From assembly GCA_964586255.1 (NCBI GenBank), contig CAZPGE010000002.1, forward strand, positions 42,065-106,064: 64,000 nt of DNA, written 5' to 3'. A model generated the notes under the pieces. That model did not search any database. It saw nothing but the letters and a program-made list of their open reading frames with translations, and was not told the origin of the DNA. This DNA is from an uncultured Candidatus Saccharibacteria bacterium (GTDB taxonomy: Bacteria > Patescibacteriota > Minisyncoccia > Phycocordibacterales > UBA2100). A program made the position numbers and the translations under genes. Numbering within the stretch: position 1 is the first letter of the stretch; each line of letters starts with the position of its first letter. Shown here one piece after another: positions 1 through 47,130 of this stretch.

Positions 1-1239
1 CCCGACACGGGCGCCGAGGAGACTCGCCCTTCAGTCGACGACGGGCCGTTTGCCGCGCTGGTCTTCAAGCTCCAGACCGACCCATTCGTGGGCGCGCTCA
101 CCTTCTTCCGTGTCTACTCTGGCTCTATCAACACGGGCGATACGGTATACAACTCCGCCAACAACAAGCGCGAGCGCATCGGCCGCATGGTGCGCCTTCA
201 GGCGGACAAGCGCGAGGAAATAAAGTCGGTCTACGCCGGTGAAATCGCTGCTGTCGTCGGTATGAAGGAGGTGAAAATCGGTCACACGCTCTGCGATGCA
301 GACCACCCGATTGCACTCGAATCGATCGTGTTCCCTGAACCGGTTGTCTCGATGCGCGTCGAGCCGAAGACAAAGGCCGACCAAGAGAAGATGGGCATCG
401 CGCTCAGCAAACTTTCCGACGAAGACCCGACATTCCGCGTGCACTCCGACCCCGAGACGATGGAAACTATCATCTCAGGCATGGGCGAGCTCCATCTCGA
501 CATCATCGTCGACCGCATGAAGCGCGAGTTCGCGGTGGAAGCGACGACCGGTAAGCCGCAGGTCGCGTACCGCGAGACGATTCAGGGCACTTCCGATGTG
601 GAATACAAGCACATCAAGCAGACAGGTGGTCGCGGTCAGTACGGTCACGTGAAAATCAAGGTGAAGCCGCTTGAGCCAATCGTGGAAGGCGAAAAGATAA
701 AGAACAATGTTGACCGCGAAGATCACTTCGAGTTCGTCAACAACATCAAGGGTGGCGTCATTCCTCAGGAATACATTCCGGCAGTCAAAAAGGGCCTCAA
801 AGAGGGAATGGAGCGCGGCGTGCTCGCCGGCTTCCCACTCGTCGATGTATCGGTAGACCTCTACGATGGTAGCTACCACGATGTGGACTCTTCGGAAATC
901 GCTTTCAAGCTCGCTGCTCTCTATGCATTCCAGGAGGGTTTACAGAAAGCCAAGCCCGTCATCCTTGAGCCAATCATGAAGCTGGAAGTCGTCATGCCGG
1001 AGAAGTTCATGGGTGATGTGACCGGCATGATCAACTCGAAACGCGGCACCATCGAAGCGATGGGAGAGCGCGGCCAGGCGCGCGTAGTCACCGCAAAGGT
1101 CCCGCTCTCGGAAATGTTCGGATTCACTACGCAGCTCCGCTCTCTCACTGAGGGTCGCGGCGTCCCAAACCTCGAGTTCTCTCACTACGCCGTCGTCCCG
1201 CGCAACGTCCAGGATGAGATCGTCGCTTCCAGAAAGTAA
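1..1239 (+). CDS. fusA: Elongation factor G, C-terminal ~410 aa (5' end lies upstream of the window; frame 1 is open from base 1)
   Basis: Translation [41 protein letters not shown]... matches EF-G domains II-V. Ends TAA at 1237-1239. A GC hairpin follows. Confidence 0.95.
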
Positions 1240-1260
1240 TACCACTCAGCATACGGAGTG

Positions 1261-1285
1261 CGCGACCCCGCTGTGCGGGGTCGCG
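1261..1285 (+). terminator. Perfect GC-rich hairpin CGCGACCCCG-ctgt-GCGGGGTCGCG followed by a T-rich tract; likely fusA terminator
   Basis: Inverted repeat read directly. A TATACT -10-like hexamer (1286-1291) lies just upstream of the next ATG (1299). Confidence 0.5.
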
Positions 1286-1298
1286 CTATACTGTTTTC

Positions 1299-3968
1299 AT
1301 GTTTAAAAAAGCCGCAGGAGCTCTTGCGATGTTCGCTCTCCTCGCTCCATCCTTAGCGTCTGCCGAGTGTCCCACGCTTTCCCTTGGTTCCACCGGCGCA
1401 CACGTAACAGCAGTACAAGCAGTGCTGCAAAGTGCATATACCAACTTCCCGACGCCGACTGGGTACTTTGGTCCTCTTACGCTCGCTGCAGTTAAGCAAT
1501 GGCAAGAAGAGCATGGCATTGAGCCAGTAGGCGCGGTGGGACCAAAGACTGCCACTGCGATGAAGCTCTCGTGCACCACAGAGACACCAGTCACTTCTCC
1601 TACCGCGACTGCACCAAGCAATCCTGCGGCCACCCCTTCGGCAAGCCCAGAACAAGTTCGCACTCTCGTGCGTGGTCTCTCGGGTTCTGACGTCCTTACA
1701 CTCCAACAGTTCCTCATCGCACAGAAGCTCCTTACTGCCGAGAATGCCACGGGCTTCTTCGGCGCACTCACAGAAGCGGCGGTGAAAGCATTCCAATCTC
1801 AAAACAAGCTCGTCTCAATCGGCGCGCCAAGTACGACCGGCTATGGGGCGGTGGGGCCGAGGACACGGGGTGCGATGGCCCTCACAAGCACGGGGAACGG
1901 GGAAAAAGTATCAGGTAATACGACAACGACTGCGTACCTTCTTCCCACGTCGACCACATACGTACCGCCAACACCGCCAATCGTTCCACTAACACCAACC
2001 TCGCCAATCGTCCCGCAGGCTCCATCTTCATGCAGCTTTAACGGTCAATCGATTGCATCCGGAGCCACAGTGAGCGCATATCAATCAGCCTCCGTTGCTT
2101 CCGGGAGTCAGTGCGTCTCGCAAGCGCGTACTTGTACGAACGGGACGCTTAGTGGCTCGTATACAAACGCGGGTTGTACGGTTGCAGGATTACCGGCACC
2201 AAGCTGCACCATTTCCTACACACCGTCTAGTGTGTCGAGCGGCCAGCCCTACGTGATTAACTGGACCTCACAAAACGCCACCTCGCGCCTCTATTCCGTG
2301 AAGAAGCCCGACGGAACATATCTGGTACAAAACGGCGGCGTGAGCGTAGGTACCGGAAGCTATACAGACACGACTGCAAGCGCGCAACTCTCGCCCGGCA
2401 CCTATACTCGTACTGATACTGTGACGGGAGCCGGTGGAACTGCCACGTGTACTGCGACCATCGCCGTCGCTGCCTCCGCGTCCGCAAATTCATGCACGCT
2501 CAACGGTCAAACCGTCGCGCATGGAGCGAGCGTAATTGCATATCAAGCCCCGTCCGTCGCATACGGGAATCAATGCGTGTCCCAAACGCGCACATGCGCA
2601 AACGGTACACTCAGCGGGTCGTATGCCAATGCGGCTTGCACGGTGGCGGCAGCCCCTCAATTGCCAATCGTAGTCCAGACCTCATCATCAGCAACAGGAT
2701 ACCCCGCCAGCAATATGCTCGACGGCTCTGCTTCGACCGCATGGGTCGCATCGCTTCAGCCTATAGGCGTAAATAACTTTGCATGGATCCAACTCGATTT
2801 GGGCTCGCGACGCTATGTAGATAAGGTTGAATGGACGTCAGCATCACAGCCGTACCCCGCGAGCGTTCTCAAAAATTACGTAATTAAAGTATCCGACGAC
2901 GGCGCCGTATGGACACCAATCGTCGCGCATTTCGAACCGCACACTGCGGCGCCTGCGTACGTGCAAAAAAAATCGATAGGCAAAAACGCGCGCTATATCA
3001 GAATCGAGACGACCAAGGTCAACGATGGGACTGGCTGGGCAGCAAGTATCGCCGAACTTTCAATCACGAGTGAGCCACAAAAAGATCTGTCATACACGTG
3101 CGATATTACGATCACACCGTCAGAGGATTACATCACTCGTATCGGTTCTCTTCGTGGGGGTACCGCGGAGCGTTGGACAAACGTGTGTTTGCAACCCGGC
3201 ACGTACACCAGCGCCGTGCGCATCCATGATGCACAATATCTTCGGATCTTGGCACCAAGTGGCGGAGTCACTTTCACTGCCTCTGTTAGGTACGTTGCGG
3301 GCAACTCGGCACCTTTCAATGTATGGGATTCGCACGACATACATATACAGGACATCAAGATAATAAACACCTATGCGTACACCACGACTGCCGATTCAAC
3401 CTCGCAATGGTCGCATGCGCTGAGAATTGCTCGCACCAACAATCTGACCTTGGAGAAGGTTGATTTGGTTTCAAACGGGAAGCAGGCGGTCTATATGGAA
3501 AGCAGCGATAATATACTCTTCAATGGCGGCTCTATTAAAGGCTACTACTTCCTCTTTAGTCCTGCGGATAAGAATTCCATCTACACCTACAACACCACTT
3601 TCACAACCGACGGCAGTGTGCAAATACCTGGCGATGAACATTCGATGCTTTGGATCGACGCCGGGGATGTCGTTTTGGATAGTAGCTATTTCAACATGAT
3701 TACCGGCAAAGGTTTATTTACCGGCGGCGGCGGCACACATAGCCGACTCGTAATAACGGGTGCGACACGAGCATCGGGTCTCAGTCACTGGGCAGATAAC
3801 CATCAAAATTACAGCAACATGCACGTCTACGTGACCGGAGCGTATCCGGCGCTAACTCCTTTCTACAATTATGCCGACGGGGGGAATGCGGCGAATTCCT
3901 TTGTGTGCACGTATTCTGGCGCTTCAGCCCCGCTGAGCGCAATAGGATGTTCGTATCCACTCAGATAA
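1299..3968 (+). CDS. Secreted multidomain protein (889 aa)
   Basis: N-terminal signal peptide MFKKAAGALAMFALLAPSLASA. Two PG_binding_1-like repeats (...GYFGPLTLAAVKQWQEEHGIEPVGAVGPKT...). Thr/Pro-rich linker. Two internal Cys-containing repeats (CSFNGQSIASGATVSAYQ...CTNGTLSGSYTNAGCTV / CTLNGQTVAHGASVIAYQ...CANGTLSGSYANAACTV). An F5/8-type-C (discoidin)-like segment (...SNMLDGSASTAWVAS...NNFAWIQLDLG...). C-terminal beta-helix-like region. Confidence 0.75.
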   Translation: MFKKAAGALAMFALLAPSLASAECPTLSLGSTGAHVTAVQAVLQSAYTNFPTPTGYFGPLTLAAVKQWQEEHGIEPVGAVGPKTATAMKLSCTTETPVTSPTATAPSNPAATPSASPEQVRTLVRGLSGSDVLTLQQFLIAQKLLTAENATGFFGALTEAAVKAFQSQNKLVSIGAPSTTGYGAVGPRTRGAMALTSTGNGEKVSGNTTTTAYLLPTSTTYVPPTPPIVPLTPTSPIVPQAPSSCSFNGQSIASGATVSAYQSASVASGSQCVSQARTCTNGTLSGSYTNAGCTVAGLPAPSCTISYTPSSVSSGQPYVINWTSQNATSRLYSVKKPDGTYLVQNGGVSVGTGSYTDTTASAQLSPGTYTRTDTVTGAGGTATCTATIAVAASASANSCTLNGQTVAHGASVIAYQAPSVAYGNQCVSQTRTCANGTLSGSYANAACTVAAAPQLPIVVQTSSSATGYPASNMLDGSASTAWVASLQPIGVNNFAWIQLDLGSRRYVDKVEWTSASQPYPASVLKNYVIKVSDDGAVWTPIVAHFEPHTAAPAYVQKKSIGKNARYIRIETTKVNDGTGWAASIAELSITSEPQKDLSYTCDITITPSEDYITRIGSLRGGTAERWTNVCLQPGTYTSAVRIHDAQYLRILAPSGGVTFTASVRYVAGNSAPFNVWDSHDIHIQDIKIINTYAYTTTADSTSQWSHALRIARTNNLTLEKVDLVSNGKQAVYMESSDNILFNGGSIKGYYFLFSPADKNSIYTYNTTFTTDGSVQIPGDEHSMLWIDAGDVVLDSSYFNMITGKGLFTGGGGTHSRLVITGATRASGLSHWADNHQNYSNMHVYVTGAYPALTPFYNYADGGNAANSFVCTYSGASAPLSAIGCSYPLR

Positions 3969-4061
3969 TCCACTCAATACGTCATGCGCCCATCGTCGTT
4001 TCATATTGAAATCTATTGCCACGTTTCTTCTGCGCGGCCTTTGCGGTGATACTATAAAAGA

Positions 4062-4649
4062 ATGTCGCTTCGCTCAGTGATTCTCTTGGTGCTCGCAGTC
4101 GCATTTGTTCCGCAGCTCACTTTTGCTGTGCTCAAAATCAACGATGCGGTCACCATCAACGGCGACCTTACGGTGACGGGCGCCCTGAGCAAGAGCTCCG
4201 GCTCATTTGTCATCGACCACCCCCTCGACCCGAAGAATAGACTGCTCTATCACTCGTTTGTCGAATCAGAAGATGTGATGAACACGTATGCCGGTCGCGC
4301 AACGCTCGACGCAGACGGCAGTGCGACGATACGCCTCCCGAGCTACTTTATGTCGCTCAACAAAGATTTTCGCTACTTTGCAACGCCGGTCGGGCAATCG
4401 ATGCCAAATTTGCACCTCTCTATAGGGGTCAAGCCGCAGTTTCTCGGACTCTTCGGCGAGCCGATATTCTCAATCTCAGGCGGGAACGCTGGTGGACAAG
4501 TAAGCTGGATGGTGACCGGTATCCGCCACGATCCGTATATTCTTGCAAACCCAATCATCCCTGAAGTCCAAAAAGGTTTGAGCGCGCCCTACTCACAGGG
4601 GATGTATGTGCACCCCGAGCTCTATGCGCCGTCTGCACAGCAAGAATAG
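4062..4649 (+). CDS. Secreted protein with a conserved ~150-aa domain (paralog 1 of 3)
   Basis: Signal peptide present. Domain ...IDHPLDPKNRLLYHSFVESEDVMNTY...MPNLH...SWMVTGIRHDPYILANPIIPEV... is shared with the next two genes. Confidence 0.7.
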   Translation: MSLRSVILLVLAVAFVPQLTFAVLKINDAVTINGDLTVTGALSKSSGSFVIDHPLDPKNRLLYHSFVESEDVMNTYAGRATLDADGSATIRLPSYFMSLNKDFRYFATPVGQSMPNLHLSIGVKPQFLGLFGEPIFSISGGNAGGQVSWMVTGIRHDPYILANPIIPEVQKGLSAPYSQGMYVHPELYAPSAQQE

Positions 4650-4650
4650 T

Positions 4651-5199
4651 ATGAGGAAATTCTTGGTATTCAGCGTTGTTATCTTCGTCGCGCTCGCAAG
4701 TGCGCCGCTTGCACGCGCGGCGCTCACTATCAACGCAAATTTTCTGGCAAAGAGCACTTTCTCAATCACGGGCTCAGTCTCAAAGGGTGCGGGGACGCTG
4801 GTCATCGACCATCCGCTCGACCCAAAAAACAAACTGCTCTACCACTCATTCGTCGAGTCGCCGGATGCCATGAATCAATACAACGGCATTGCGGCTCTCG
4901 ATGAGAATGGCGAAGCAACCATTCAGCTACCGGATTATTTCGAAGCGCTCAATATGAAATTTACCTATCAATTTTTCCCGATGCATGAGGCAATGCCGAA
5001 CCTGCACATTAAACAAAAGATTCAGGACAACGCGTTTACTATCGGGGGCGGGATCCCTGGTGGTGAGATTTCTTGGATGGTCACCGGTATTCGCCACGAC
5101 CCGTACATCCTCGCGAACCCAATTATTCCCGAGGTAGAGAAGGGCCCGGACCAGCTTGTCGACAAGGGTGAGTGTATTTTTGCTCCACTATGCAAATAA
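4651..5199 (+). CDS. Secreted protein, paralog 2 of the same domain family (likely start MRKFLVFS at 4651; the ORF-track start 4606 overlaps the upstream gene)
   Basis: Signal peptide MRKFLVFSVVIFVALASAPLARA. ...IDHPLDPKNKLLYHSFVESPDAMNQY...EISWMVTGIRHDPYILANPIIPEVEKGPDQLV... Confidence 0.7.
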   Translation: MRKFLVFSVVIFVALASAPLARAALTINANFLAKSTFSITGSVSKGAGTLVIDHPLDPKNKLLYHSFVESPDAMNQYNGIAALDENGEATIQLPDYFEALNMKFTYQFFPMHEAMPNLHIKQKIQDNAFTIGGGIPGGEISWMVTGIRHDPYILANPIIPEVEKGPDQLVDKGECIFAPLCK

Positions 5200-6578
5200 A
5201 ATACTTCAGCACGATCTTCGCGATGTTTTTTCTTGCCATACCGGTATCCGCTTCTGCAACCACTATTTTTCTTACCTCCGGCAGCAGTTGGACTGTCCCT
5301 TCCGATTGGGGCACGCCTAATTCCGTCGAATGTATCGCCGCCGGCGGAGGAGGCGGTCGCGGCGGAGGAGGCGCAGGCGGTGGTTACGCCAAAGCGGTAA
5401 ACATATCTCTTACGGCAGGCAGTAGCGTCAGCATAAGTGTGGGCACTGGCGGCGCAGGCAATCTGGGCGGCACGGGTGGTACGGGTGGAACAACATCATT
5501 CGGCAGTGCATGTAGTGCAGGCGGCGGAACGGGCGGGCTGGACGGTTACAACAACACTGGCGCAGGCGGTACCGGAGGCAGTGGAACCGTCGGTTCAACT
5601 TTGCGCACAGGCGGTAATGGTGGTGCGTACGGTGCAGGTTTACCGGGGACCGGAGGTGGTGGCGGTGGCGCAGCGGGAGCTAGTACTAACGGCACCTCAG
5701 GTAGTGCTGGTGTTGGCTTCGCTACCTCTGGTGGCAATGGTGGCGCTGGCGGAGGAGGATCTGGTGGTAGCGGAGGTGCAGGTGCCACTACTATAGGTGC
5801 CGCTGGTGCTGCTGGCGGTACCGGGACTAACTACGATGCCTCTCATGGCTCAGGTGGCGGCGGGGGCGGGGGTCAGGGAAGCTATTGGAGTCCCGGTTAC
5901 AATGCAGGTAACGGCGGCGCCGGCGGCTCGTATGGCGGCGGGGGCGGAGGCGGAGGTCAGGGTTATACCATTGACGGCACAGGCGGGAATGGAGGTGCGG
6001 GACTTATTATCGTCACCTATACACCAAGGTTGCCCTCAGCAAGTCGCGATCTCACGGTGAATGATTCGGTCTCTGTTGCGGGCAATGTCACGGTGGTCGC
6101 CAATCTTGCGAAGGGCTCTGGCACGTTCCTCATCGACCATCCGGCAGATCCCGCCAACAAACTTCTCTATCACTCTTTTGTAGAATCTCCTGATGCGCTC
6201 AATGAGTACGCAGGCACAGCTGAGGTCGGGAAGAATGGTGACGTGGCCATACGACTTCCGGATTATTTTGAAGCGCTCAATGGCAATCCGCAGTATTTTA
6301 TTCGAGCGCTCGATATGCCGATGCCCAATCTCTTCGTCAAACAAGAAGTAAAAGATAATGAATTTGTAGTTGGAGGCGGAAGTCCTGGCGGCGAGATTTC
6401 TTGGATGGTCACCGGTATTCGCCACGACCCGTACATTCTGGCCAATCCCATCATTCCCGAAGTTGAGAAAGGCCCGGACCAGCTCGTTGGCAAAGGGGAG
6501 TATGTGTTTGCGGGGAATGCGCCGACGTGTTCGACGCTCGCTCGTTGTGTGTGGGATTTCATGAGACGGTTCTTCTAG
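5190..6578 (+). CDS. Glycine-rich secreted protein ending in paralog 3 of the 150-aa domain
   Basis: Signal peptide. ...SGSSWTVPSDWGTPNSVECIAAGGGGGRGGGGAGGGY... Long GGxGG low-complexity region. C-terminal ...IDHPADPANKLLYHSFVESPDALNEY...EISWMVTGIRHDPYILANPIIPEVEKGPDQLV. ATG 5190 overlaps the upstream stop. Confidence 0.7.
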   Translation: MQIKYFSTIFAMFFLAIPVSASATTIFLTSGSSWTVPSDWGTPNSVECIAAGGGGGRGGGGAGGGYAKAVNISLTAGSSVSISVGTGGAGNLGGTGGTGGTTSFGSACSAGGGTGGLDGYNNTGAGGTGGSGTVGSTLRTGGNGGAYGAGLPGTGGGGGGAAGASTNGTSGSAGVGFATSGGNGGAGGGGSGGSGGAGATTIGAAGAAGGTGTNYDASHGSGGGGGGGQGSYWSPGYNAGNGGAGGSYGGGGGGGGQGYTIDGTGGNGGAGLIIVTYTPRLPSASRDLTVNDSVSVAGNVTVVANLAKGSGTFLIDHPADPANKLLYHSFVESPDALNEYAGTAEVGKNGDVAIRLPDYFEALNGNPQYFIRALDMPMPNLFVKQEVKDNEFVVGGGSPGGEISWMVTGIRHDPYILANPIIPEVEKGPDQLVGKGEYVFAGNAPTCSTLARCVWDFMRRFF

Positions 6579-6603
6579 ACGCACCTGTACCCAATCGTGC
6601 GCA

Positions 6604-6625
6604 AAATCCCTCTTGCGAGGGATTT
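6604..6625 (+). terminator. Hairpin AAATCCCTC-ttgc-GAGGGATTT
   Basis: Inverted repeat directly after the 6578 stop. Followed by TATACT and the next start. Confidence 0.45.
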
Positions 6626-6639
6626 GGTGATTTATACTA

Positions 6640-7122
6640 GTGTGTATGGATGATCGACGAGAGCTCCTCATCGGCATGGCTGCAATCGCAATATTTGCGG
6701 TCTGCATATACCTGCTCGCAAACATGGGCAAAGCTCCCGCTTCTCCCGCTGATACGATTCCTGCAGCGACACCGATTCCTCCGTACACTGAAAAGATAGA
6801 AGCCGCGCTCGCAAAGAGTGAGGGCTTCGAGATGTTTGTTTCCTACACCGACCGTGGATTCGAGCCTATGAGTACTACAATAAAAAAGGGGGACACGGTG
6901 CGCTTCACCAACAATTCGCCGCGCAAGCTCTGGATAGCGGCGAGCTCCGAAGGTGGCGTGAAGCTCTATCCGGGTACATCGGAGTGCGGCGCAAGCGCAT
7001 TTGGCACCTGCGAACCACTCGAGCCACAAGAATTCTGGGAATTTACATTTACAGAGACTGGTACGTGGAAGTATCACAACAGTCTCAACAAGAGTGATGC
7101 CGCCTCCATACGGGTCCAATGA
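6640..7122 (+). CDS. Small membrane-anchored protein with a possible cupredoxin-like beta domain
   Basis: N-terminal TM helix. ...KKGDTVRFTNNS...WEFTFTETGTWKYHN... resembles a cupredoxin/EfeO-like fold, but the ligand set is unclear. Stop overlaps the next start (ATGA). Confidence 0.45.
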   Translation: MCMDDRRELLIGMAAIAIFAVCIYLLANMGKAPASPADTIPAATPIPPYTEKIEAALAKSEGFEMFVSYTDRGFEPMSTTIKKGDTVRFTNNSPRKLWIAASSEGGVKLYPGTSECGASAFGTCEPLEPQEFWEFTFTETGTWKYHNSLNKSDAASIRVQ

Positions 7123-10888: not shown

Positions 10889-11124
10889 GGTTGGGGCCTC
10901 TGCGGAGAGGTTTTCTTGACGCTCACACCTCGTTTGCTAGTATGTGCCCACGCACGCTCTGTGCGTTTCTTTCTTGTCCTGCGTAGCCTTGCGCGAAGCA
11001 GGATGCCGAAACTTCTTTCGTGCAGACTAGCAAACTGCGCCAAGCGATAGAAGAAGGAGGGGGAGAATACCGGAGCACCCAAACGCGTTGGCATTATAAA
11101 TTACTAGGCTAATACTATATTTGT

Positions 11125-12355: not shown

Positions 12356-12383
12356 AAAACCCGCCGCAAGGCGGGTTTTCTTG
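12356..12383 (+). terminator. Rho-independent terminator AAAACCCGCC-gcaa-GGCGGGTTTTCTTG
   Basis: Perfect stem plus U-tract immediately after tuf. Confidence 0.7.
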
Positions 12384-12457
12384 ATTATGCACAATGCGCC
12401 GGACAAATAGGGCTTTCTCAGAGGATATGCACAGCATCGAGTGCACACACTTGCTTA

Positions 12458-29508: not shown

Positions 29509-29524
29509 ACTCCACTCCAGAGCA

Positions 29525-29920: not shown

Positions 29921-29943
29921 TTGCTGCGCATGGCAATGAATAC

Positions 29944-31131: not shown

Positions 31132-31728
31132 TTATTTCGGAACCTTGTCGTTCGGGACAATGTCTCCGATCCTGGTCGCGAAGTCGACCCGCATCTGCGC
31201 GATCTGCAGCCGGGTAAACATATCCTTCTTGAACATCGGCCACCACTTCTCGGCCGAATGCAGAACCAGCATCGGCCCCAGATCACCTTGGATGACGCGA
31301 GCGCTCCTCGGATCGCCGGGAGCCTGGAGCCGACCCCACGATGCGCCGAGGGCGCATCTTCCGCCGGCGAACGGCAGATAGGAGTTTTCGCCATCCTTGT
31401 CGGTCTCGGCGAGAAACTTCTTCAGGTTTGCCGCTGACTTGAAACACCAGGTGACGCCCTTCAGCCTCGTCTGGTATTTGTCGCAGTCGGCGACGTCGGG
31501 CTGCCCGCCCTTCTCGGCGTTCAGCCAGGCCGATACGACGTCGTAATCGACCCGCGCACCCTTCTCGTGTTTTTTCCACGAGAATGCCACGCCGTCGTTG
31601 ACGACGATTTCGGTCAGAGGCTTCTTGTCCTCCTTCGCGACTGCGGGCTTCGCCACCTCCTGCGCGAGGCCAGCGCGGGAAAAACATGCCGCGAGGATGC
31701 CCGCGGCAACCAACAAAAGCTTTCTCAT
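31132..31728 (-). CDS. Putative lipoprotein (lipobox LAAC)
   Basis: MRKLLLVAAGILAACFS. No domain recognised. Confidence 0.5.
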   Translation of the reverse strand: MRKLLLVAAGILAACFSRAGLAQEVAKPAVAKEDKKPLTEIVVNDGVAFSWKKHEKGARVDYDVVSAWLNAEKGGQPDVADCDKYQTRLKGVTWCFKSAANLKKFLAETDKDGENSYLPFAGGRCALGASWGRLQAPGDPRSARVIQGDLGPMLVLHSAEKWWPMFKKDMFTRLQIAQMRVDFATRIGDIVPNDKVPK

Positions 31729-32928: not shown

Positions 32929-33174
32929 ATGATGAAAAAGATCCTTCTCGGTACCGTCGTGGGTACCGCCCTGCTTGCGATGTTCGCGCTTACGCCGGCG
33001 TCGGCGCAGGGAACGAACTATGCCGGTCAGTGCTCGAGTTACTCGGCACCGGCGGACTGTCTGAAATGCTGCGGAACATTTCACAAGAGCTCGTACCTGA
33101 GCGCGGAATGCACGAACTCGTGCAAGATCAGCAACTTCCGCGATTCGAGGAACATGTCGCCGAAGCGCAAGTAG
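32929..33174 (+). CDS. Small secreted Cys-rich peptide (81 aa, 6 Cys)
   Basis: GGAGG RBS. Signal peptide MMKKILLGTVVGTALLAMFALTPASA. Mature part ...GQCSSYSAPADCLKCCGTFHKSSYLSAECTNSCKIS... Confidence 0.45.
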   Translation: MMKKILLGTVVGTALLAMFALTPASAQGTNYAGQCSSYSAPADCLKCCGTFHKSSYLSAECTNSCKISNFRDSRNMSPKRK

Positions 33175-33277: not shown

Positions 33278-34783
33278 TTAGGCGAATGGGTGTGGCTCGT
33301 CCGTAAACGGCTTCTCACGAGGGGTGATGTCGAAGTGCTGCGGTACGCTTTTCCAGCGCTCTCCGCCCAGTTGCTGGAATTTCTCACTGAGATGCATCGG
33401 TTGAAGCTCCGGTATGACCACCATCTCTATCGACCATGGGGTGGGATTCTTTTTGGAGGTGCCAAGAGAGACCGACACACATTCGTATCCCGAATCTCGA
33501 CACCAGCTCACGATGCGTTGGAGGTGCTCATCCGGCGTGTCGTTTTCCCATTCGGCAAGCGGCACCTCGATTTCTTTTCCCTGCAGAAGCACTTCAAGCT
33601 TTTTTGCATTCTCCGGTGCGCCCCAATACAGAATACGGTCGTAGTGTCCGACCTCGCTTTTCGAGACAGAGGGGTCCCATCGTTTTCCTGCGAGGTCCTG
33701 TCGTCGACACGAAAAGCGCGCGCGGAGTGCTTCTGTCGTTGCTCTCTCTACAGCATGTGTCAATGATCGATGCGCTTTCATACCGAAAGAAAATCGTGGC
33801 ACGTGTCCACTTTCGTCTTCGAGGATGACACACACGGCGTGTGCGGGTGCATCGGTCAGGAGCTGCAGAGCATGCACCTTGAGGCGATAGCGCGCACATG
33901 TACCCACGAATTCCGAGAGCGTCGTGCTGCGTGCGCAAAGACCCTCAAGTGATATCCGGGGCAAGGCGAGTTGATTGAGCCACATAATCATGTACGCATC
34001 GCGCTCGACTACCTCGAGAGCACCGGCAAGTCGTGCGCCGCTTTGCGTGGGCCATGTGGCGAGCCCGGTGGTATTGCGATGCCGAATAAGTGGTTCTTCA
34101 GAATTCCCCAGATCTTGAACGGCGGTTATCGTCTGAGCGGGCACATACGTCGGGTTTCCCGAGACAAGCGAGATTCCTCGCGTCCAGAGAAACGTACTCG
34201 AGGAGTCGAGTCTCCATCCCGGATTCTTTTCGCGTTGCTCCGGGGAGAATGCGACGAAGCGCTCGGGCGCAATCGATGCGCCGTATTTTTGTATAACGTT
34301 ATGCGTCGCCTGCACTGGCGCTACAAAATAGTCTCGCTCCTCAAGCCAAATATACCGCTCAAGCGCTTCTGCAAGAGCGGCTGTAAGGGCGTTCGCATCG
34401 CTCTTCCACGCACTTCCACCGACAGGATTGTTTCTCTTGTCGCCACACACCGCATTCCACTGCGCAATTCGGGGCTCATCAGCAAGATGCGGAGCTCGTA
34501 CAATGGACGCTATCACCCCGCTCTGTTTTAGTTTCTTTGCCAACTCAAATGAATCCAAAAGCTCCGGACGATTAAATGGAATCTGATTCGCATCGAATGC
34601 GATGGTGACGCGCAATTTTCTTTCCAATATATTGAGAATCGAATAGATCGCTCTTTCTTGGAATCCTCCGCGGATTGGGGAGTAGAAATGAGCGAAGGGA
34701 ATGCCTTCAAATATCATGTGGGGATGATAGCAGTCATGCTCAAGGCGAGGAAGCTTCAAGATGCGCGGACTATTATTATCCAC
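33278..34783 (-). CDS. YcaO domain protein, paralog 2 (501 aa)
   Basis: GGSAWKSDANALTAALAEALERYIW and GALEVVERDAYMIMW motifs. Shares the distinctive C-terminal region with YcaO-1 (...YWGAPENAKKLE...PHPFA). Confidence 0.75.
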   Translation of the reverse strand: MDNNSPRILKLPRLEHDCYHPHMIFEGIPFAHFYSPIRGGFQERAIYSILNILERKLRVTIAFDANQIPFNRPELLDSFELAKKLKQSGVIASIVRAPHLADEPRIAQWNAVCGDKRNNPVGGSAWKSDANALTAALAEALERYIWLEERDYFVAPVQATHNVIQKYGASIAPERFVAFSPEQREKNPGWRLDSSSTFLWTRGISLVSGNPTYVPAQTITAVQDLGNSEEPLIRHRNTTGLATWPTQSGARLAGALEVVERDAYMIMWLNQLALPRISLEGLCARSTTLSEFVGTCARYRLKVHALQLLTDAPAHAVCVILEDESGHVPRFSFGMKAHRSLTHAVERATTEALRARFSCRRQDLAGKRWDPSVSKSEVGHYDRILYWGAPENAKKLEVLLQGKEIEVPLAEWENDTPDEHLQRIVSWCRDSGYECVSVSLGTSKKNPTPWSIEMVVIPELQPMHLSEKFQQLGGERWKSVPQHFDITPREKPFTDEPHPFA

Positions 34784-35097: not shown

Positions 35098-36231
35098 ATG
35101 GAGCCAGAAAACAACGGACCGCAGAGCCACTTTGCTGGCATAGTGCTTGTCGTACTCGGCGTCCTGGTCGCAGCTCTCATTGGAGGATTCTTCTATATCT
35201 ACGACCGAGTTAAAAACCAGGAGAACGTGACCGACTATACCGTGACAAACACACCCTTCACCGTACTAACTCGAGATAATCAATACTTCGCACAGGCCAG
35301 CGCGGCGGCTCGCGCCGGGAATTATGAGCAGGCAATACAGCTGTACGAGCAAGCGCTCACGCTCGCAGAGGATTCCGCTCAAGCAAGCCAGATACAATTT
35401 ACAATCGCATTGCTTGAAGATCGATACGGGAGCGCGCCTCGAGCAATCGACCTTTACAAGCAGATTGTCATCAGCTCTACCAACGACAACCATCCGCTTC
35501 TGAAAGCGAATGCCATAGCGAATATGGTCGAGCTCTACTATAGAAATGGTGACTCAGCGGTGACGGAACAGATATTTAAAGACCCTCCATATTCGACCTT
35601 TTTTGTTTCCAATGATTTGAGTCTTTCATACCGACGCCTCGCAGAATATGCGGTATCTTTTTACCCGCTCGCTCTTCCTGAGCTGCGCATCGCGAGCTGG
35701 TATGCATATCGCTTGACGGATGTAAGTCGAATCGCAACAGGAGAGGCCACAAGTACCTATCCGGGCATAATCCAGAATGCAATTCTGCGTGCGGACCAAG
35801 ACATAGACCGCATGCGGGCGAACACCGACGACGCGCAGCTCATCCCGAACATCCTCACGCGCAAAAGTGCACTCTATCTCAATATGCATGACGCGGGTCT
35901 CGCGACCGCGCAGGAAACCGAAGAAGTCAACAAAGCTGCGCTCACGATTTACTCCGCGATTGGTGCGCCAGATGCTATCGACGGCTTTGCGAGATACTAC
36001 TACGCGGTGTTTCTCGCAGAACAGGGGTCCTCACGCGCGACCGATTTGCAGGCGGTTGTCTCACCGTTCTATGACAATCCTGGCTACAAAGGTTCGCTCG
36101 CCCTCGCTTTCTTTGCGAGCGAGAAAACCAACGCTCTCAGCCAGAAGTCACGTTTGGTGAAAATCGCTAATGCCGATCCCAAATTCAAGGCGCTCCTGAT
36201 ATCGCTCGGTTGGAATGAAAAAGATCTCTAG
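35098..36231 (+). CDS. TM-anchored alpha-helical/TPR-like protein, paralog B (377 aa)
   Basis: N-terminal TM HFAGIVLVVLGVLVAALIGGFFYIY. Homologous to 29944..31044. Confidence 0.55.
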   Translation: MEPENNGPQSHFAGIVLVVLGVLVAALIGGFFYIYDRVKNQENVTDYTVTNTPFTVLTRDNQYFAQASAAARAGNYEQAIQLYEQALTLAEDSAQASQIQFTIALLEDRYGSAPRAIDLYKQIVISSTNDNHPLLKANAIANMVELYYRNGDSAVTEQIFKDPPYSTFFVSNDLSLSYRRLAEYAVSFYPLALPELRIASWYAYRLTDVSRIATGEATSTYPGIIQNAILRADQDIDRMRANTDDAQLIPNILTRKSALYLNMHDAGLATAQETEEVNKAALTIYSAIGAPDAIDGFARYYYAVFLAEQGSSRATDLQAVVSPFYDNPGYKGSLALAFFASEKTNALSQKSRLVKIANADPKFKALLISLGWNEKDL

Positions 36232-36928
36232 TGTGTCTGATGCCTTTTGGCATCGTTCGGCTACATTTTACCTGTGGCTCTGTCTCGGTGTCTTGTTGGT
36301 GATAGGGCTATCGGTGATTGCACTTGAGAAACACGTCGCGTCGAAAGGGAGCGCCAAGACAGATAGTGAGTCGCTCATCGTGCGCCGCATTACAGAAGAC
36401 GACCATGTCTTGGGCGCAGTCTCAGCTCCAGTACAGGTGATCGTGTACGCGGATTTATCATGCCCGTACTGCAAAAGCTTTTTTCAATCTACGCTCCCAA
36501 AGCTCCGCGCAGCATACGGGGACAAGATTGTTGTGGCGTATAGGCATTTGCCGCTTGCGCAGCATCCCGCGAGCCGTCTTGAAGCGAACGCAGCCGAATG
36601 CGTGGCGCAAGCGGCAGGCAACGATGCATTCTGGCGATTTGTGCAAAAGGTGTATGAACACCCTAAATTTAGGGACGGACTTGCTCTGTCAGATCTCGTC
36701 TCTCTTGCGCAGGGCGATGGCATATCACGGGTACGCATGTCTGCGTGCATAGAGTCTGAAGAATATGGTGACCGAGTACGTACCGATGCGCTTGAAGCAT
36801 CGGTCGCGGGTATTTCCGTGACTCCCGGCGTCGTGCTCAAGTCATCTACACGCGCTCTGATTGTGCAGGGCGATTACCACCGTGAGATTGACGCAGGAAT
36901 TGAATACCTGCTTCAGAGCGGCATTTGA
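36215..36928 (+). CDS. Membrane-anchored DsbA-like thiol:disulfide oxidoreductase (thioredoxin fold)
   Basis: CPYC active-site motif (..VYADLSCPYCKSFF..). N-terminal TM. Confidence 0.65.
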   Translation: MKKISSVSDAFWHRSATFYLWLCLGVLLVIGLSVIALEKHVASKGSAKTDSESLIVRRITEDDHVLGAVSAPVQVIVYADLSCPYCKSFFQSTLPKLRAAYGDKIVVAYRHLPLAQHPASRLEANAAECVAQAAGNDAFWRFVQKVYEHPKFRDGLALSDLVSLAQGDGISRVRMSACIESEEYGDRVRTDALEASVAGISVTPGVVLKSSTRALIVQGDYHREIDAGIEYLLQSGI

Positions 36929-37004
36929 TTTTCGATACTTTTCTGTCCCCAAGTCGGAAGAGAGAACGAGAAATCGAGAAAACACGACCTGTATACTGTC
37001 TTGC

Positions 37005-37478
37005 ATGGAAATGCGCCCTACCTTCATTCTCTCAATCGCGGTGGCGATTGTCGCGACGGCGCTCTTGATTTATTTGACCCCCTTGAGGCACGTTACGCTT
37101 GTGCCGCCAGGTATGCATGAGATGGACCCAAAGGAGTTTTACGATGATTTCAAAGCGAATCCCGACAAATATCTTCTCGTAGACGTCCGTTCGCCGAGTA
37201 TTTTCACATCTGCGCACGCGCAGGGGGCTATCAGCATCCCAATAGAGAATCTCTACGATGAGAAGAACTCGTTGCCGAGAAGCGGAAAGAGGATAGCACT
37301 CATATGTACGACAGGGCGACTCGCAGCAATCGGGTACGGATACTTAGAGAGTCAGGGATTTACGAACCTTATACATATAGAAGGGGGGATGGTGAATTGG
37401 GTGGTCGAGGGGCTCCCGGTCGAAGGTAAGAATGTCGAGCTCGCCGCCTCTACGACCATCCCAGATGAGCATCAGTGA
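37005..37478 (+). CDS. Membrane-anchored single-domain rhodanese (sulfurtransferase)
   Basis: N-terminal TM. Rhodanese fold ...LLVDVRSPSIFTSAHAQGAISIP... with catalytic loop ICTTGRLA. Confidence 0.65.
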   Translation: MEMRPTFILSIAVAIVATALLIYLTPLRHVTLVPPGMHEMDPKEFYDDFKANPDKYLLVDVRSPSIFTSAHAQGAISIPIENLYDEKNSLPRSGKRIALICTTGRLAAIGYGYLESQGFTNLIHIEGGMVNWVVEGLPVEGKNVELAASTTIPDEHQ

Positions 37479-37485
37479 GAAAAGT

Positions 37486-38298
37486 ATGAGTCCTCACGTG
37501 AGGTTCGTGCGCTCAAGAATGGGCATCGGTGCTGTGAGTGCGTCGGTGGTCCTCGTCTCCCTCGCGCTGTTTTTCCTGCGTACTCCGATAGGGAATATAC
37601 AAGAGGACATGGCCTACGCATTATCGCCATCGGCGGAGCGCGCTTTTCAGTACGGTGCGCGACATTTCAGTTCGGATAGGCCCAAGCAGTATGACGTTGA
37701 CCGCGCAGAGTACTTTTTCAATCTTGCCGTGCTCAAAGACCCCACGATTCCATACCTCTACCACCAGCTTGCACGCATCTCTTTCTTGCGCGGCAACTTT
37801 CCGCGTGCGATGACACAGATTAACTACCAAATATCTACGCACGGGGACGCGACGCCAAACTCGTACTACATTCGCGGACTCATCGAAGGGTATATGGGAG
37901 ATTACGAGGACTCTGCGCGCGATTATGAATATTTTCTGCAGTTTGACCCGCGCAACTGGGCGGCGCTCAACGATTATGCGTGGGTGCTCTTGAAAGCAGA
38001 GCGTTTCCGAGACGCTGCCGAAATCACCGCGAGGGGACTTATCGACTTTCCCGACAATCCGTGGCTCCTCAACTCTCACGCCATCGCACTCTTCGAGTTG
38101 AAACAATACGAGGACGCACTCTTGTATGCACAGAAAGCTTCCACGGAAGTCGCAACGTTGAGCGACGCGGAGTGGCTCCATGCATACCCGGGCAATGACC
38201 CTAAGATTGGCGATGAGGGGCTCGCCACCTTCAAGAAGGCCGTCGCGGACAATATGCACACCATCGAACTCGCAATCGCTTCGAGCACGGTACAATAA
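37486..38298 (+). CDS. TM-anchored TPR-repeat protein
   Basis: TM GIGAVSASVVLVSLALFFL then TPR-like helical repeats. Start uncertain (ORF opens at 37432). Confidence 0.5.
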   Translation: MSPHVRFVRSRMGIGAVSASVVLVSLALFFLRTPIGNIQEDMAYALSPSAERAFQYGARHFSSDRPKQYDVDRAEYFFNLAVLKDPTIPYLYHQLARISFLRGNFPRAMTQINYQISTHGDATPNSYYIRGLIEGYMGDYEDSARDYEYFLQFDPRNWAALNDYAWVLLKAERFRDAAEITARGLIDFPDNPWLLNSHAIALFELKQYEDALLYAQKASTEVATLSDAEWLHAYPGNDPKIGDEGLATFKKAVADNMHTIELAIASSTVQ

Positions 38299-38300
38299 GA

Positions 38301-39335
38301 TTGTTTATGACGTATTCGTCTTTCTCTCAGATTGTTCGTCCACATATCCGCGCGCGCCTGTATCTCGTCGTGCTCCTCGCGCTCACCGCAATGCTTGTTG
38401 CGGGTCTCAGTGCTCACAATACAAGCGAGACGTTTGCATCTGCCGAAGTCGAATTCACCGACATTTCTGCACGCGGCATGCACATAGTCCCGGCGTCGTG
38501 CCCTTCGGACCAGCACTACGTGGGGGAGTGCGGCCCGGCTACATGCACGCCGCCCTACACTGGCACCTATCCCAACTGTGTCTACGTACCTCCGGGTACG
38601 GGCGGTCCTGGCGGTGGCGGTGGTGGAATCCCGGGTGTCTCTGGAAATGCGTGCGTTATCGTGCTGAGTCCATCCACGATTACCCTCGGAGGGAGTTCTG
38701 CGATGTCGTGGAATTCAAGTTATTCAGTATTCGGCATTCCGTTTGCCATGAGCGGTACCATCTCTCCCACTCCTGGCGCTGTGGCCGCGTCGGGCGCGAC
38801 GACCGTGAGCCCATCGGTGTCTACCACATACATCGGAACGTTTACCTCAACCGGCGAAGGCCGCCTTCTGGGGGACAAGGGTTCGGGTTGGTTTTCGCCC
38901 GTTACATGCAGTGCTCGCCTCACGGTAATTCCTGCGAATGAAGTGCCTGGAAGTTGCAGTGTGTACAACTTTTGTAGAGGATCGGATGTCTACCAACGGA
39001 CAGCTAGCTGCACAGACCAATTTGTCCGAAGCTGTGCATTTGGATGTGCAAACGGCGTGTGTCTTGGCGCCCCTGCGCCCACCGGATTCTTGCGCGCGCA
39101 GCCCTCGCTTGTGCGACAGGGCGACACAACGACAGTGGAGTGGGGTGCAACGCAGGTGAGCTCGTGTACCGTGACTGGTACCAACGGAGACTCATGGAGT
39201 GGTAAAAGCGGGACGCAGACATCGAGGGATATTACTTCGAGGACCACATACACACTTTCGTGCATTGGACTCGATGAATCTGTGCTTGAGATGACCGCGG
39301 TGGTCAATGTTACGCCAATATTCGATGAGCAGTAG
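38301..39335 (+). CDS. Secreted protein with Gly-rich stretch, 6-Cys module and C-terminal Ig-like domain
   Basis: C-terminal ...CTVTGTNGDSWSGKSGTQTSRDITSRTTYTLSCIGLDESVLEMTAVVNVTPIFDEQ* parallels the ...NILPVFNEQ* ends of the 7119 and 9077 proteins. Confidence 0.6.
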   Translation: MFMTYSSFSQIVRPHIRARLYLVVLLALTAMLVAGLSAHNTSETFASAEVEFTDISARGMHIVPASCPSDQHYVGECGPATCTPPYTGTYPNCVYVPPGTGGPGGGGGGIPGVSGNACVIVLSPSTITLGGSSAMSWNSSYSVFGIPFAMSGTISPTPGAVAASGATTVSPSVSTTYIGTFTSTGEGRLLGDKGSGWFSPVTCSARLTVIPANEVPGSCSVYNFCRGSDVYQRTASCTDQFVRSCAFGCANGVCLGAPAPTGFLRAQPSLVRQGDTTTVEWGATQVSSCTVTGTNGDSWSGKSGTQTSRDITSRTTYTLSCIGLDESVLEMTAVVNVTPIFDEQ

Positions 39336-39360
39336 AAGCGAACGGTGATATAATTCTCAT

Positions 39361-39855
39361 ATGAACGTCTCTCTCAAAAGTATCAAAGTAAGCTTCATCA
39401 TAGGTGCGCTTGCCCTGATGTTCTTGAGTGCCACGTTGGGCAGCGTGTTTGCCCAGACACAAGACGATGCACTCAAAAGCACCATACGCGCAGCGATACA
39501 GGCCGATCCACGTTCCCAAGGCATGACGGAGGCAGAAGTCGACGCCATGGTACAAGCACTTTCTCACCAGGCAGAGTCAGTCGGCATGACATCGGAGGAC
39601 ATCGTATGGCGGCCGACTGGAGAAGGGGCAGTAGGTGGAGATGCACCCCTCTGCGATGGGGTGCTCTGCGGACTCAACTACGCCTTCGGTCTCGACGGCT
39701 CAAACTACACGATTCCGATATGGCTCGGCGCTTGCGCGCTCATGCTCATGTTTATCATTGCGGGTATTCTCGAGTACCGACACCTCCACCACAAGAAAGC
39801 CGAAGAAGGGCAGGGGGCAATGTCGCAGGGTACAAACGACGGCGCGCAGCTCTAG
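39361..39855 (+). CDS. Hypothetical membrane protein (signal peptide + C-terminal TM)
   Basis: Hydrophobicity pattern only. Confidence 0.4.
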   Translation: MNVSLKSIKVSFIIGALALMFLSATLGSVFAQTQDDALKSTIRAAIQADPRSQGMTEAEVDAMVQALSHQAESVGMTSEDIVWRPTGEGAVGGDAPLCDGVLCGLNYAFGLDGSNYTIPIWLGACALMLMFIIAGILEYRHLHHKKAEEGQGAMSQGTNDGAQL

Positions 39856-39964
39856 AGTTGCAAAATAATACCTGAGTGTGTATAGTGCCTCGACCCATGT
39901 CCCCATAGGGACCACTGGCGAGGCACGAGGTGTGTCCCGCTAGCGCGGGATTTTTTCTTACAAT

Positions 39965-40588
39965 ATGAAATTCAGCAATAAGTTTATCTTGGGCACCAAG
40001 GGTCGCATGACCCAGGTCTTCGACGAGAAAGGCGTCGTCTCCGCAGCCACACTTATCTCTGCTGCGCCGATGACGGTGACCCAGGTAAAGACTAAGGAGA
40101 AGGATGGGTACGAAGCTGTGCAGATCGGTATGGGTACCCGTGCTCCAAAGAATATCAATGCACCTCAAAAGGGTCACCTCAAGGACCTCCCGAACGCTCG
40201 CACTATGCGCGAATTCCCGCTTACCGGTGAAGCAAAGCGCGGAGACACCATGGATATTTCGGTGTTCGTCCCAGGCGATATCGTCACCGTCTCGGCCATT
40301 TCGAAAGGTAAGGGCTTCCAGGGTGTCGTAAAGCGCCATGGCTTTGCTGGCGGGCCTCGTTCGCACGGTCAGAAGAACAAAGAGCGCGCTCCAGGCTCCA
40401 TCGGTGGAGGTGGTCGTGCGGGTGGTCGCGTGGTAAAGGGTATGCGCATGGCCGGCCGTATGGGCGGTGAGCGCATCACGGTGGAGAACCTCCGCGTCTT
40501 GCAGGTTGATGTCGAGAACAACGCGATGCTTATCTCCGGTGCCATCCCTGGTCGCCCTGGTACACTCGTCGAAATCCGAGCAAAATAA
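39965..40588 (+). CDS. rplC: 50S ribosomal protein L3
   Basis: Family-typical sequence. Position at the head of the S10-type operon. Confidence 0.95.
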   Translation: MKFSNKFILGTKGRMTQVFDEKGVVSAATLISAAPMTVTQVKTKEKDGYEAVQIGMGTRAPKNINAPQKGHLKDLPNARTMREFPLTGEAKRGDTMDISVFVPGDIVTVSAISKGKGFQGVVKRHGFAGGPRSHGQKNKERAPGSIGGGGRAGGRVVKGMRMAGRMGGERITVENLRVLQVDVENNAMLISGAIPGRPGTLVEIRAK

Positions 40589-47127: not shown

Positions 47128-47130
47128 CGT

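Follow-up and report, generated by a model that had tools for sequence, protein, structure and literature searches.

Collinear ribosomal operons with open junctions in a Candidatus Kaiserbacteria-like genome: predicted autonomous units of the str-S10-spc string and a candidate leader RNA of rplC

The string of ribosomal protein genes is a textbook case of gene order frozen for billions of years, and it is the backbone of the marker sets used for placing uncultivated lineages. Here we describe a stretch of 64,000 nt (positions 42,065 to 106,064 of contig CAZPGE010000002.1, assembly GCA_964586255.1; called the window below) in which the str-S10-spc part of this string is interrupted by accessory genes between fusA and tuf (block 1), between tuf and rpsJ (block 2) and between rpsJ and rplC (block 3). 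Our reading, held with a probability of about 0.7, is that the str-S10-spc string of this clade consists of collinear, autonomous transcription units and that the junctions between the units are long-lived open spacers. By sequence comparison the window (G+C ~55%) is part of a Candidatus Kaiserbacteria-like genome (Paceibacteria, candidate phyla radiation, CPR). The closest-matching genomes are metagenome-assembled genomes under the labels Candidatus Kaiserbacteria, Parcubacteria or Paceibacteria; they are other species or genera, with an rpsJ identity of up to 94% and a tuf amino-acid identity of about 88-93%. In what follows, L numbers are our handles for the loci and contigs compared, c numbers those for gene families, and genes of the blocks are cited by their first coordinate (Table 1).

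The gene identities and the insertion sizes claimed in an earlier reading of the letters alone (the sequence-only reading) hold, the three spacers being 9,885, 7,167 and 20,107 bp long. Open reading frames (ORFs) were called by codon score and then homology-weighted; length-only greedy calling had replaced rplC by an antisense ORF. The genes fusA, tuf, rpsJ, rplC, rplD, rplW and rplB follow each other in the canonical order, all on the forward strand, and rpsL and rpsG lie upstream on contig L171 of the same genome, which also carries the complete fusA (713 aa with the EF-G Pfam domains). This contig was reached by exact look-up of a 195-aa block-1 protein; the look-up of an 889-aa block-1 protein gave no match. 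A fourth split is found in the window between rplE (45756-46289) and rpsN (start about 48153), where a spacer of 1.86 kb (46290-48152) contains a class-I methyltransferase (46426-47127), a low-molecular-weight phosphotyrosine-phosphatase/ArsC-like gene (47131-47565), a hairpin (47569-47595) and a small minus-strand ORF. On L171 (895-5036) five genes, about 4.1 kb in all and including a PEMT-like protein and a uracil-DNA glycosylase, lie between rpsG and fusA; therefore the str operon is split at a further junction outside the window. On the 3' side of secY the order (52113-64000) is gmk, adk, map, purD (54042-55307), a VirD4/TraG-like coupling-ATPase (937 aa, 55322-58135), RNase J (59481-60842) and a LOG/SLOG-family gene. 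None of the alpha-operon genes infA, rpsM, rpsK, rpsD and rpoA follows map within the window, so either the spc-alpha junction is broken too or the alpha operon is located elsewhere.

The age of the splits was judged from a set of 80 species-representative genomes, for which sequence was taken around rpsJ (~20 kb per genome). Loci with an rpsJ identity < 76% are called the more distant Paceibacteria and the remainder the Kaiserbacteria-like group; spacer tallies are given separately for measured and for censored loci. Between tuf and rpsJ the median spacer of the distant Paceibacteria is 44 bp, with only 2 of 58 loci exceeding 1 kb, while in the Kaiserbacteria-like group 9 of 12 (measured) and 7 of 9 (censored) do so. 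For rpsJ/rplC the distant median is 262 bp and 11 of 52 spacers are longer than 1 kb, the Kaiserbacteria-like counts being 4 of 5 (measured) and 15 of 16 (censored). For fusA/tuf, spacers above 1 kb are found in 19 of the 37 distant loci and, among the Kaiserbacteria-like ones, in 1 of 2 (measured) and 7 of 10 (censored). The control junctions, both of them ribosomal, are tight throughout (median 28 bp for rplC/rplD and 362 bp for rplD/rplB, rplW included). The spacer sizes across the 80 genomes indicate that contiguity is ancestral in the wider group and that the splits are derived, old and shared by the clade.

Relatives also have part of the content in common with the window, junction by junction. 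Seven of them (L003, L008, L011, L013, L014, L015 and L023) carry homologs of block-1 surface proteins 5' of tuf, and homologs of the SSF, 22388, 23500, QueC-like, PRTase-beta-propeller, SagB and YcaO genes of block 3 are found 3' of rpsJ in relatives. L024 keeps the order of the window after rpsJ (PRTase-beta-propeller, SagB, YcaO, TPR, DsbA, rhodanese, TPR), and in L006 and L022 the PRTase-beta-propeller/SagB/YcaO genes are 55-70% identical. In the closed chromosome L008 (CP066682.1) all three junctions are open; tuf is preceded there by 7119-like and PG-binding genes, and rpsJ is followed by QueC-like, SSF, 22388, 23500 and PRTase-beta-propeller genes. The 22388/23500 pair is common to L004, L008 and L011. 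L002, L007, L014 and L018 have homologs of 39361 in the rpsJ/rplC spacer; they are directly 5' of rplC in L002, L014 and L018 (in L018 as the sole gene from rpsJ to rplC), and a further one stands just 3' of rpsJ in L017. The recurrence of the surface proteins and of the YcaO/SagB/PRTase-beta-propeller/TPR/DsbA/rhodanese genes at the same junctions argues that much of blocks 1 and 3 is old. Beside these recurrent genes, which form a patchwork, the tuf/rpsJ and rpsJ/rplC spacers of L001-L024 hold mostly singleton clusters, and other junction genes of relatives include PAPS-synthesis, sulfatase, histidine-kinase, YCII, DUF1697 and HTH genes. Gene sets also switch junction. The PRTase-beta-propeller gene with c37, c54, c89 and c108 precedes tuf in L024 but follows rpsJ in L003, and the 6640 and 7119 families are found at both the tuf and the rplC junctions. 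Differing accessory genes at the same three junctions in relatives suggest that these behave as permissive, high-turnover sites.

At the sequence level, hairpins and conserved promoter-like or leader elements are located at the junctions, from which the boundaries of the transcription units are predicted; we infer that these elements act as promoters, terminators and an attenuator. Terminator-like hairpins are present after fusA, tuf and rpsJ (Table 1). At least 9 Kaiserbacteria-like loci have the tuf terminator (AAAACCCGCC..GGCGGGTTTT) in the same place, and L023 and L024, where tuf abuts rpsJ, lack it. The promoter-like element of rpsJ lies within the conserved TAGTGCATACTCTGCGGGTTCTATG and leaves ~10 nt of 5' untranslated region. 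Just 5' of rpsJ, GTGCATACT is present in 19 loci, with three more carrying it further upstream, and it is missing from every locus with a tuf-rpsJ spacer of <100 bp. It may be noted that the element TTGCnT-17-(TAG)TGCATACT (19455-19497) is very strongly kept in at least 19 loci and that a Shine-Dalgarno sequence is not obvious; the rpsJ mRNA may be nearly leaderless. The sequence-only reading had taken rpsJ as an isolated gene with its own terminator. The predicted terminator stands; the isolation needs qualifying, as a co-oriented ABC-F gene ends 58 bp upstream with no terminator in the gap, although rpsJ has a conserved promoter-like element of its own.

That rplC opens its own transcription unit, as had been proposed, is borne out by a predicted promoter-like site followed by a conserved structured leader. 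The 77-nt leader 5' of rplC folds much better than its shuffles (z = -4.4) and is made up of an irregular hairpin (5'-GCUAy GUCCC..loop..GGGAC CAA UGGC), a GC-rich hairpin and a U-run that ends 7 nt before the AUG. Covariance models of the core motif matched 22 and then 25 loci of 58 Paceibacteria, nine matches being outside the original seed (leader loci: the window and L002, L007, L014, L018, L020, L023, L032, L034, L037, L038, L040, L042, L043, L045-L047, L051, L053, L060, L064, L065, L068, L069, L075). All 25 matches are on the plus strand at 0-140 nt upstream of rplC, and none was found elsewhere in the 1.27 Mb searched on both strands. Changes on both sides occur in 6-7 of 10 pairs, and the covariation score is 0.28 against 0.12 for shuffles (0 of 500 reach it) and 0.03-0.13 for slid controls, with the caveat that the seed had been chosen by a pairing-aware pattern. 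RNAalifold found no pairs in the raw MAFFT alignment of the regions upstream of rplC because the loops vary in length, and the core-motif alignment was used instead. In many loci a GC-rich hairpin and a U-run follow 3' of the motif, and in others the motif abuts the AUG (CAAUAGAcaacAUG); these two layouts are what a single regulator with an attenuation version and a translational-repression version should give. On this pattern of pairing and placement the leader is probably an attenuator responsive to a ribosomal protein, and we regard it as a candidate new ribosomal leader RNA that is apparently undescribed. Rfam gave no gathering-score match in the whole window, and a permissive search of 39800-40000 gave chance-level matches only (E = 0.35 and 3). 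A literature search on ribosomal leaders in Patescibacteria or Parcubacteria listed no paper in which such a term occurred.

Taken as autonomous units, these genes would be organised as follows. fusA would end in its hairpin and tuf would be monocistronic, with a conserved promoter-like region and an intrinsic terminator. The rpsJ unit would have its conserved promoter-like element and terminator, and the rplC unit its promoter-like site, structured leader and terminator hairpin. Since no transcript would have to cross the junctions, foreign or relocated DNA would be tolerated there, and accessory genes could accumulate, duplicate, move and get lost in the long-lived open spacers. The three blocks would then be mosaics of differing ages. 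Blocks 1 and 3 would be mostly old residents of the clade, a stretch of block 2 from a SoFic defence gene to a GT2-like gene would be a recent horizontal gain, and the ABC-F gene would have been relocated next to rpsJ within a sublineage. Local remodelling would have occurred by duplication, as in the exact 1.17-kb tandem repeat of block 1 and the two YcaO paralogs of block 3. We infer that gains came by recombination anchored on the conserved flanking genes and not by site-specific integration.

The last point can be taken further into a rival of its own, in which the extremely conserved fusA, tuf, rpsJ and rplC serve as homology arms and double crossovers with DNA of related cells swap the spacers in naturally competent Patescibacteria, making the junctions a hotspot anchored by recombination, with a high turnover that needs no mobile-element genes. 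We consider this rather unlikely, though it agrees with the data. It would account for variable content between fixed conserved flanks, for the gene sets that occur at different junctions and for the missing marks of mobile genetic elements; Patescibacteria have been reported to possess genes for competence and homologous recombination and to transfer tuf and ribosomal protein genes frequently (PMC12455944). Yet the identities of the accessory genes roughly follow that of the core (L022 and L006 being closer than L024), as in vertical descent, and the genomes compared are too distant to gauge the turnover against the rest of the genome.

Insertion of the blocks as islands or mobile elements, recently and by site-specific recombination into the ribosomal operon, is improbable. 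The integration hotspot proposed by the sequence-only reading is supported in part: the same junctions carry differing accessory genes in relatives, with strong differences in gene content per junction and many singleton families, and one stretch is compositionally foreign; the marks of integration were not found. ARAGORN found 0 tRNA genes in the window, the Pfam scan of the block ORFs gave no integrase, transposase or relaxase domain, and direct or inverted repeats at the block boundaries were not above chance (longest shared boundary k-mers of 0-9 nt, not above shuffles). A PHROGs scan returned SoFic-like families and a weak exonuclease match and nothing else phage-like. Contigs of the same species (99-100% identity) and of a 92%-identical strain show collinearity throughout the overlap; these contigs are short, and no empty site was seen in them. 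Many genomic islands enriched in translation genes have been reported in Patescibacteria (PMC12455944), which would favour insertion, as would the repeated hairpin and intergenic modules after the block-2 genes and an atypical composition at 12.5-16.2 kb, a stretch that opens with a defence gene. A clear compositional shift, one of the signs that the sequence-only reading had named as worth looking for, is limited to this stretch. There the SoFic, exonuclease, NTase-like and GT2-like genes have a third-position G+C (GC3) of 0.48-0.53 and negative log values of relative synonymous codon usage, against a GC3 of 0.63-0.77 for the translation genes. The other block genes are inside the range of the window's non-ribosomal genes, and blocks 1 and 3 have no clear outliers against these. 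The 3.7-kb stretch is the sole compositionally foreign part, and none of the 80 rpsJ loci has a homolog of it. What was found for the rest comes close to what the sequence-only reading had named as its refutation, an ancestral, clade-wide order without boundary marks: the splits are clade-wide, and much of blocks 1 and 3 has its genes and their order in common with relatives at the same junctions.

It had also been proposed that the insertions ride on the high expression of the operon, so that read-through from the translation genes drives the accessory genes. This is a weak proposition, to which we give little credence. Some features would allow it: blocks 1 and 2 and the right-hand genes of block 3 run in the direction of the ribosomal genes, the first block-1 gene comes 13 nt after a fusA hairpin whose U-run is weak, and the ABC-F to rpsJ gap is free of a terminator. 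Against this stand the predicted canonical terminator after tuf and the bidirectional one after rpsJ, the hairpin on each block-2 gene, the conserved promoter-like elements at tuf, rpsJ and rplC and the first eight genes of block 3 (~10 kb), which are convergent with rpsJ on the opposite strand.

An assembly or binning artefact that joined unrelated contigs at conserved ribosomal genes has a negligible probability and is already refuted for the junctions, for although the genome is metagenome-derived and two of its short-read contigs end within the 7119/9077 repeat, several samples and two assembly pipelines span all junctions independently, repeat interior excepted, and the closed Kaiserbacteria chromosome L008 has the same three junctions open. 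The independent contigs L171-L174 contain rpsL-rpsG-...-fusA-block 1, and L085, L177 and L178 contain tuf-block 2-rpsJ-start of block 3 at 99.98-100% identity. The right half of block 3 with rplC-rplD-rplW was assembled in five other samples. The short-read contigs are interrupted solely at the exact 1,166-nt tandem repeat, where both L171 and L085 end.

Several points weigh against the reading of autonomous units with long-lived open spacers. The promoters, terminators and attenuator are predictions from sequence, the leader was found in only 25 of the 58 loci, and the fusA hairpin is poor in its U-run, so that transcripts may read through into block 1. As the relatives are other species or genera, the turnover at the junctions may reflect just a genome-wide loss of synteny with no special hotspot. 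Also, rpsJ identity is a crude proxy for phylogeny, and the repeat copy number at 7119/9077 is known from the window's own assembly alone.

If the reading of autonomous units is right, a whole CPR clade keeps the order of the ribosomal string and yet opens at least 5 junctions to tens of kilobases of accessory genes, which would test, in a natural setting, whether the ribosomal cluster is constrained by the concatenation of operons and not by the function of its genes. It would matter for binning and marker extraction, because a distance of 7-20 kb can separate rpsJ and tuf from the genes next to them in the string and accessory repeats interrupt contigs, and it would add a candidate new ribosomal leader RNA in a phylum with almost no known regulation. 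Only tentatively do we go on to propose that in Kaiserbacteria and related Paceibacteria the control of the S10-type operon has moved from rpsJ to an undescribed structured leader/attenuator of rplC, that tuf and rpsJ have gained promoters and terminators, and that fusA/tuf, rpsJ/rplC and rplE/rpsN have become neutral landing zones, recombination-anchored hotspots where competent, genome-reduced bacteria may keep and exchange surface, defence and peptide-modification genes.

Table 1. Features of the window cited in the text, in order of position; promoter-like sites, leader and terminators are predictions.
Feature	Coordinates	Strand	Remarks
fusA (EF-G), C-terminal 413 codons, truncated by left window end	1-1239	+	translation; full gene on L171
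Terminator-like hairpin after fusA, 12-bp stem with 11 G-C pairs	1260-1286	+	13 nt before first block-1 gene
Block 1, seven co-oriented genes	1299-10888	+	each with N-terminal signal peptide or membrane anchor
PG_binding + F5/8-type-C protein	1299-3968	+	
Three paralogs with common C-terminal domain	4062-4649, 4606-5199, 5172-6578	+	
Small anchored protein	6640-7122	+	
Tandem glycine-rich/Ig-like pair	7119-9080, 9077-10888	+	
Exact tandem duplication, 1,166 nt, spacing 1,808	7911-9076 = 9719-10884	+	repeat search
tuf promoter-like region, ACCGGAGCAC ... GCGTTGGCA-17-AATACT	11060-11116	+	kept upstream of tuf in several Kaiserbacteria-like loci
tuf (EF-Tu)	11125-12327	+	translation
Predicted intrinsic terminator after tuf, AAAACCCGCC-GCAA-GGCGGGTTTTCTT	12356-12382	+	
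SoFic defence gene	12497-13594	+	Pfam, PADLOC
75-aa ORF	13748-13975	+	GC3 0.60
Hairpin CGGCCGCG-NNNN-CGCGGCCG, four copies	14006, 16184, 16801, 17798	+	each 3' of a gene
DEDDh exonuclease	14143-14730	+	
NTase-like gene	14802-15248	+	
GT2-like gene	15230-16177	+	
Three small genes of unassigned function	16325-16786, 17005-17268, 17465-17770	+	
ABC-F translation-factor-like ATPase	17988-19436	+	ends 58 bp upstream of rpsJ
rpsJ promoter-like element, TTGCCT-17-CATACT within TAGTGCATACT	19455-19483	+	11 nt before ATG
rpsJ (S10), 23-residue N-terminal extension	19495-19857	+	translation
Bidirectional terminator hairpin	19866-19912	.	between convergent rpsJ and methyltransferase genes
Block 3, left part	19920-29952	-	eight genes, ~10 kb, convergent with rpsJ
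Methyltransferase, then SSF transporter	first two genes 3' of rpsJ	-	
PP-loop-motif protein	22388-23494	-	SGGxDS motif
23500-24240 gene	23500-24240	-	
QueC-like PP-loop protein	24267-25100	-	SGGxDS motif, weak QueC match
PRTase + beta-propeller fusion	25649-27295	-	
SagB-type dehydrogenase	27305-28018	-	TIGR03605
YcaO-1	28015-29952	-	overlaps SagB gene by 4 nt
Membrane-anchored helical protein	29950-31044	+	
YHS-like secreted protein	31132-31728	-	
Small Cys-rich secreted peptide, 80 aa	32935-33174	+	signal peptide and 7 Cys
YcaO-2	33278-34783	-	49% identical to YcaO-1
Block 3, right part: TPR, DsbA-like thioredoxin, rhodanese, TPR proteins	35098-39855 (whole part)	+	
Surface protein	38301-39335	+	paralog of 7119/9077
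Small membrane protein	39361-39855	+	
rplC promoter-like site, TTGCAA-17-TATAGT	39858-39886	+	
Conserved leader hairpin motif	39890-39923	+	
Terminator/attenuator hairpin with U-run	39934-39958	+	
rplC (L3)	39965-40588	+	opens contiguous rplC-rplD-rplW-rplB... string

In block 1 the exact repeat covers the C-terminal two-thirds of the two surface-protein genes and points to a very recent duplication or gene conversion. The 7119, 9077 and 38301 proteins have a C-terminal domain in common, and their motif before the stop is alike (PVFNEQ in the 7119/9077 pair and PIFDEQ in 38301).

The claim that each insertion carries secreted, surface or RiPP-like functions (RiPP, ribosomally synthesized and post-translationally modified peptide) fails for block 2, where defence, exonuclease, NTase-like, GT2-like and ABC-F genes are found. 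The SoFic protein matches the PADLOC model PDLC03963 over residues 13-364 of 365 (E = 2.6e-106), with the Fic_N, Fic and SoFic-like C-terminal Pfam domains all found and the motif HPFLDGNGRTGR intact. In its full-length match, its three domains and its intact HPFLDGNGRTGR it is the same as the known single-gene SoFic anti-phage defence, from which it differs in its place, this predicted defence gene being directly 3' of the tuf terminator in a CPR genome. Its homologs in viral contigs are merely 31-39% identical and uninformative on origin; the exonuclease has no close relatives among the viral contigs searched and the GT2-like gene none among the metagenome contigs searched. Between the tuf terminator and the SoFic start (12386-12495), five TGCACA-containing repeats (e.g. 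ATGTGCACA) occur within 110 nt, and the array looks like an operator array.

The hairpin CGGCCGCG-N4-CGCGGCCG is observed 4 times against 0.11 expected, all within block 2. It is part of intergenic modules in which it is followed by TTTTGCTTTGTATAAAAAACGGCTTAAAAACCCCAAGAAATC or the variant CATAGAACnGTTCTCTGTAA, at 13628-13658, 14006-14055, 16184-16246, 16801-16827 and 17798-17950. Modules of 31-50 nt are shared (13628-13658 = 16216-16246; 14006-14055 matches 16184-16233). These modules are absent elsewhere in the window and from all fetched loci of other genomes, and the hairpin had no match in viral contigs. An apparent strain variation in block 2, with other gene calls in L178, was rejected as a difference of the gene caller, the DNA being collinear and 99.985% identical. 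Orthologs of the ABC-F gene (65-73% identity) in 80 metagenomic loci are never <10 kb from tuf or rpsJ, and its adjacency to rpsJ is common only to L010 and to contigs L081 and L083 of the 92%-identical strain; the position of the ortholog in those loci argues that the place beside rpsJ is derived.

In block 3 the SagB-type dehydrogenase scores 107.6 bits with TIGR03605 (NCBIfam cut-off 78.4), and the two YcaO proteins (Pfam E = 4e-46 and 3e-41) are best matched by the SagD type, at 175-178 bits with TIGR03604, below the cut-off of 219. The presence of a SagD-type YcaO and a SagB dehydrogenase is like that of the thiazole/oxazole-modified microcin (TOMM) clusters of RiPPs. Unlike in these clusters, neither a convincing precursor with a Cys/Ser/Thr-rich core beside the YcaO genes nor an E1-like partner was identified, the YcaO scores are under the SagD cut-off, and the set adjoins the PRTase-beta-propeller fusion in several relatives. 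We know of no RiPP role for this fusion. Small ORFs next to the YcaO genes were rejected as RiPP precursors, since they look spurious. The peptide at 32935-33174, between the two YcaO genes, is the sole Cys-rich small ORF nearby and is unlike a classical TOMM precursor. A segmental duplication of a YcaO gene together with a divergent helical protein is half supported, as the YcaO copies are 49% identical and their neighbours match only marginally (E = 0.004). A literature search gave no match for Kaiserbacteria combined with YcaO.

The PRTase-beta-propeller fusion recurs near the junctions, 3' of rpsJ or 5' of tuf, in L001, L003, L006, L016, L022 and L024, where its companions are SagB/YcaO or the 470-aa family c37 with the Pfam-less c54, c89 and c108. 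Another Pfam-less family (c18, ~400 aa) is arrayed near rpsJ in some relatives, with seven tandem copies in L002 (1174-8878). The c18 arrays adjoin a bifunctional ATP-sulfurylase/APS-kinase in L009 and L022, and two sulfatases are present at a junction in L011; these genes hint at sulfation chemistry at the junctions of relatives.

The known system closest to the rplC leader is the leader of the E. coli S10 operon, through which L4 attenuates transcription and represses translation (summarised in Fu et al. 2013, PMC3616713). This classical L4-responsive leader precedes rpsJ and is restricted to Gammaproteobacteria (PMC3616713). Like it, the rplC leader is predicted to be a structured 5' leader of an S10-type operon with a hairpin upstream of a terminator hairpin, and the variant that abuts the start codon in some genomes would fit translational control. 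Unlike it, the leader predicted here precedes rplC and not rpsJ, and has no sequence or Rfam similarity to it.

For the splits, two parallels may be drawn. In cyanobacteria and plastids the str operon ends in rpsJ and rplC begins a separate unit. The detachment of rpsJ from rplC and its association with tuf in that layout mark rpsJ/rplC as a natural breakpoint, as in the window; in the present clade rpsJ is detached from tuf too and has its own promoter-like element. The other parallel comes from Gammaproteobacteria and Bacilli, where multigene insertions between the operons of the ribosomal cluster have been described, inherited by clades and followed by loosening; in Enterobacterales and their relatives str and S10 are separated by bfd-bfr, and in some Bacilli by ilv-leu (PMC6735719, PMC8046335). 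In those cases as in ours, genes outside translation lie between the units while unit order and orientation are kept, the insertions are inherited by whole clades with loosening to follow, and no clear mobile-element signature was found in either. The differences are of extent and of place. At least 5 junctions are open in one CPR genome and no alpha-operon genes follow map, fusA/tuf, rpsJ/rplC and rplE/rpsN are intra-operonic in E. coli, and the spacers are much larger here (up to 20 kb), with a strong turnover of content. Also, unlike in the Gammaproteobacteria and Bacilli, the units that are split here have their own conserved promoter-like, terminator or leader elements.

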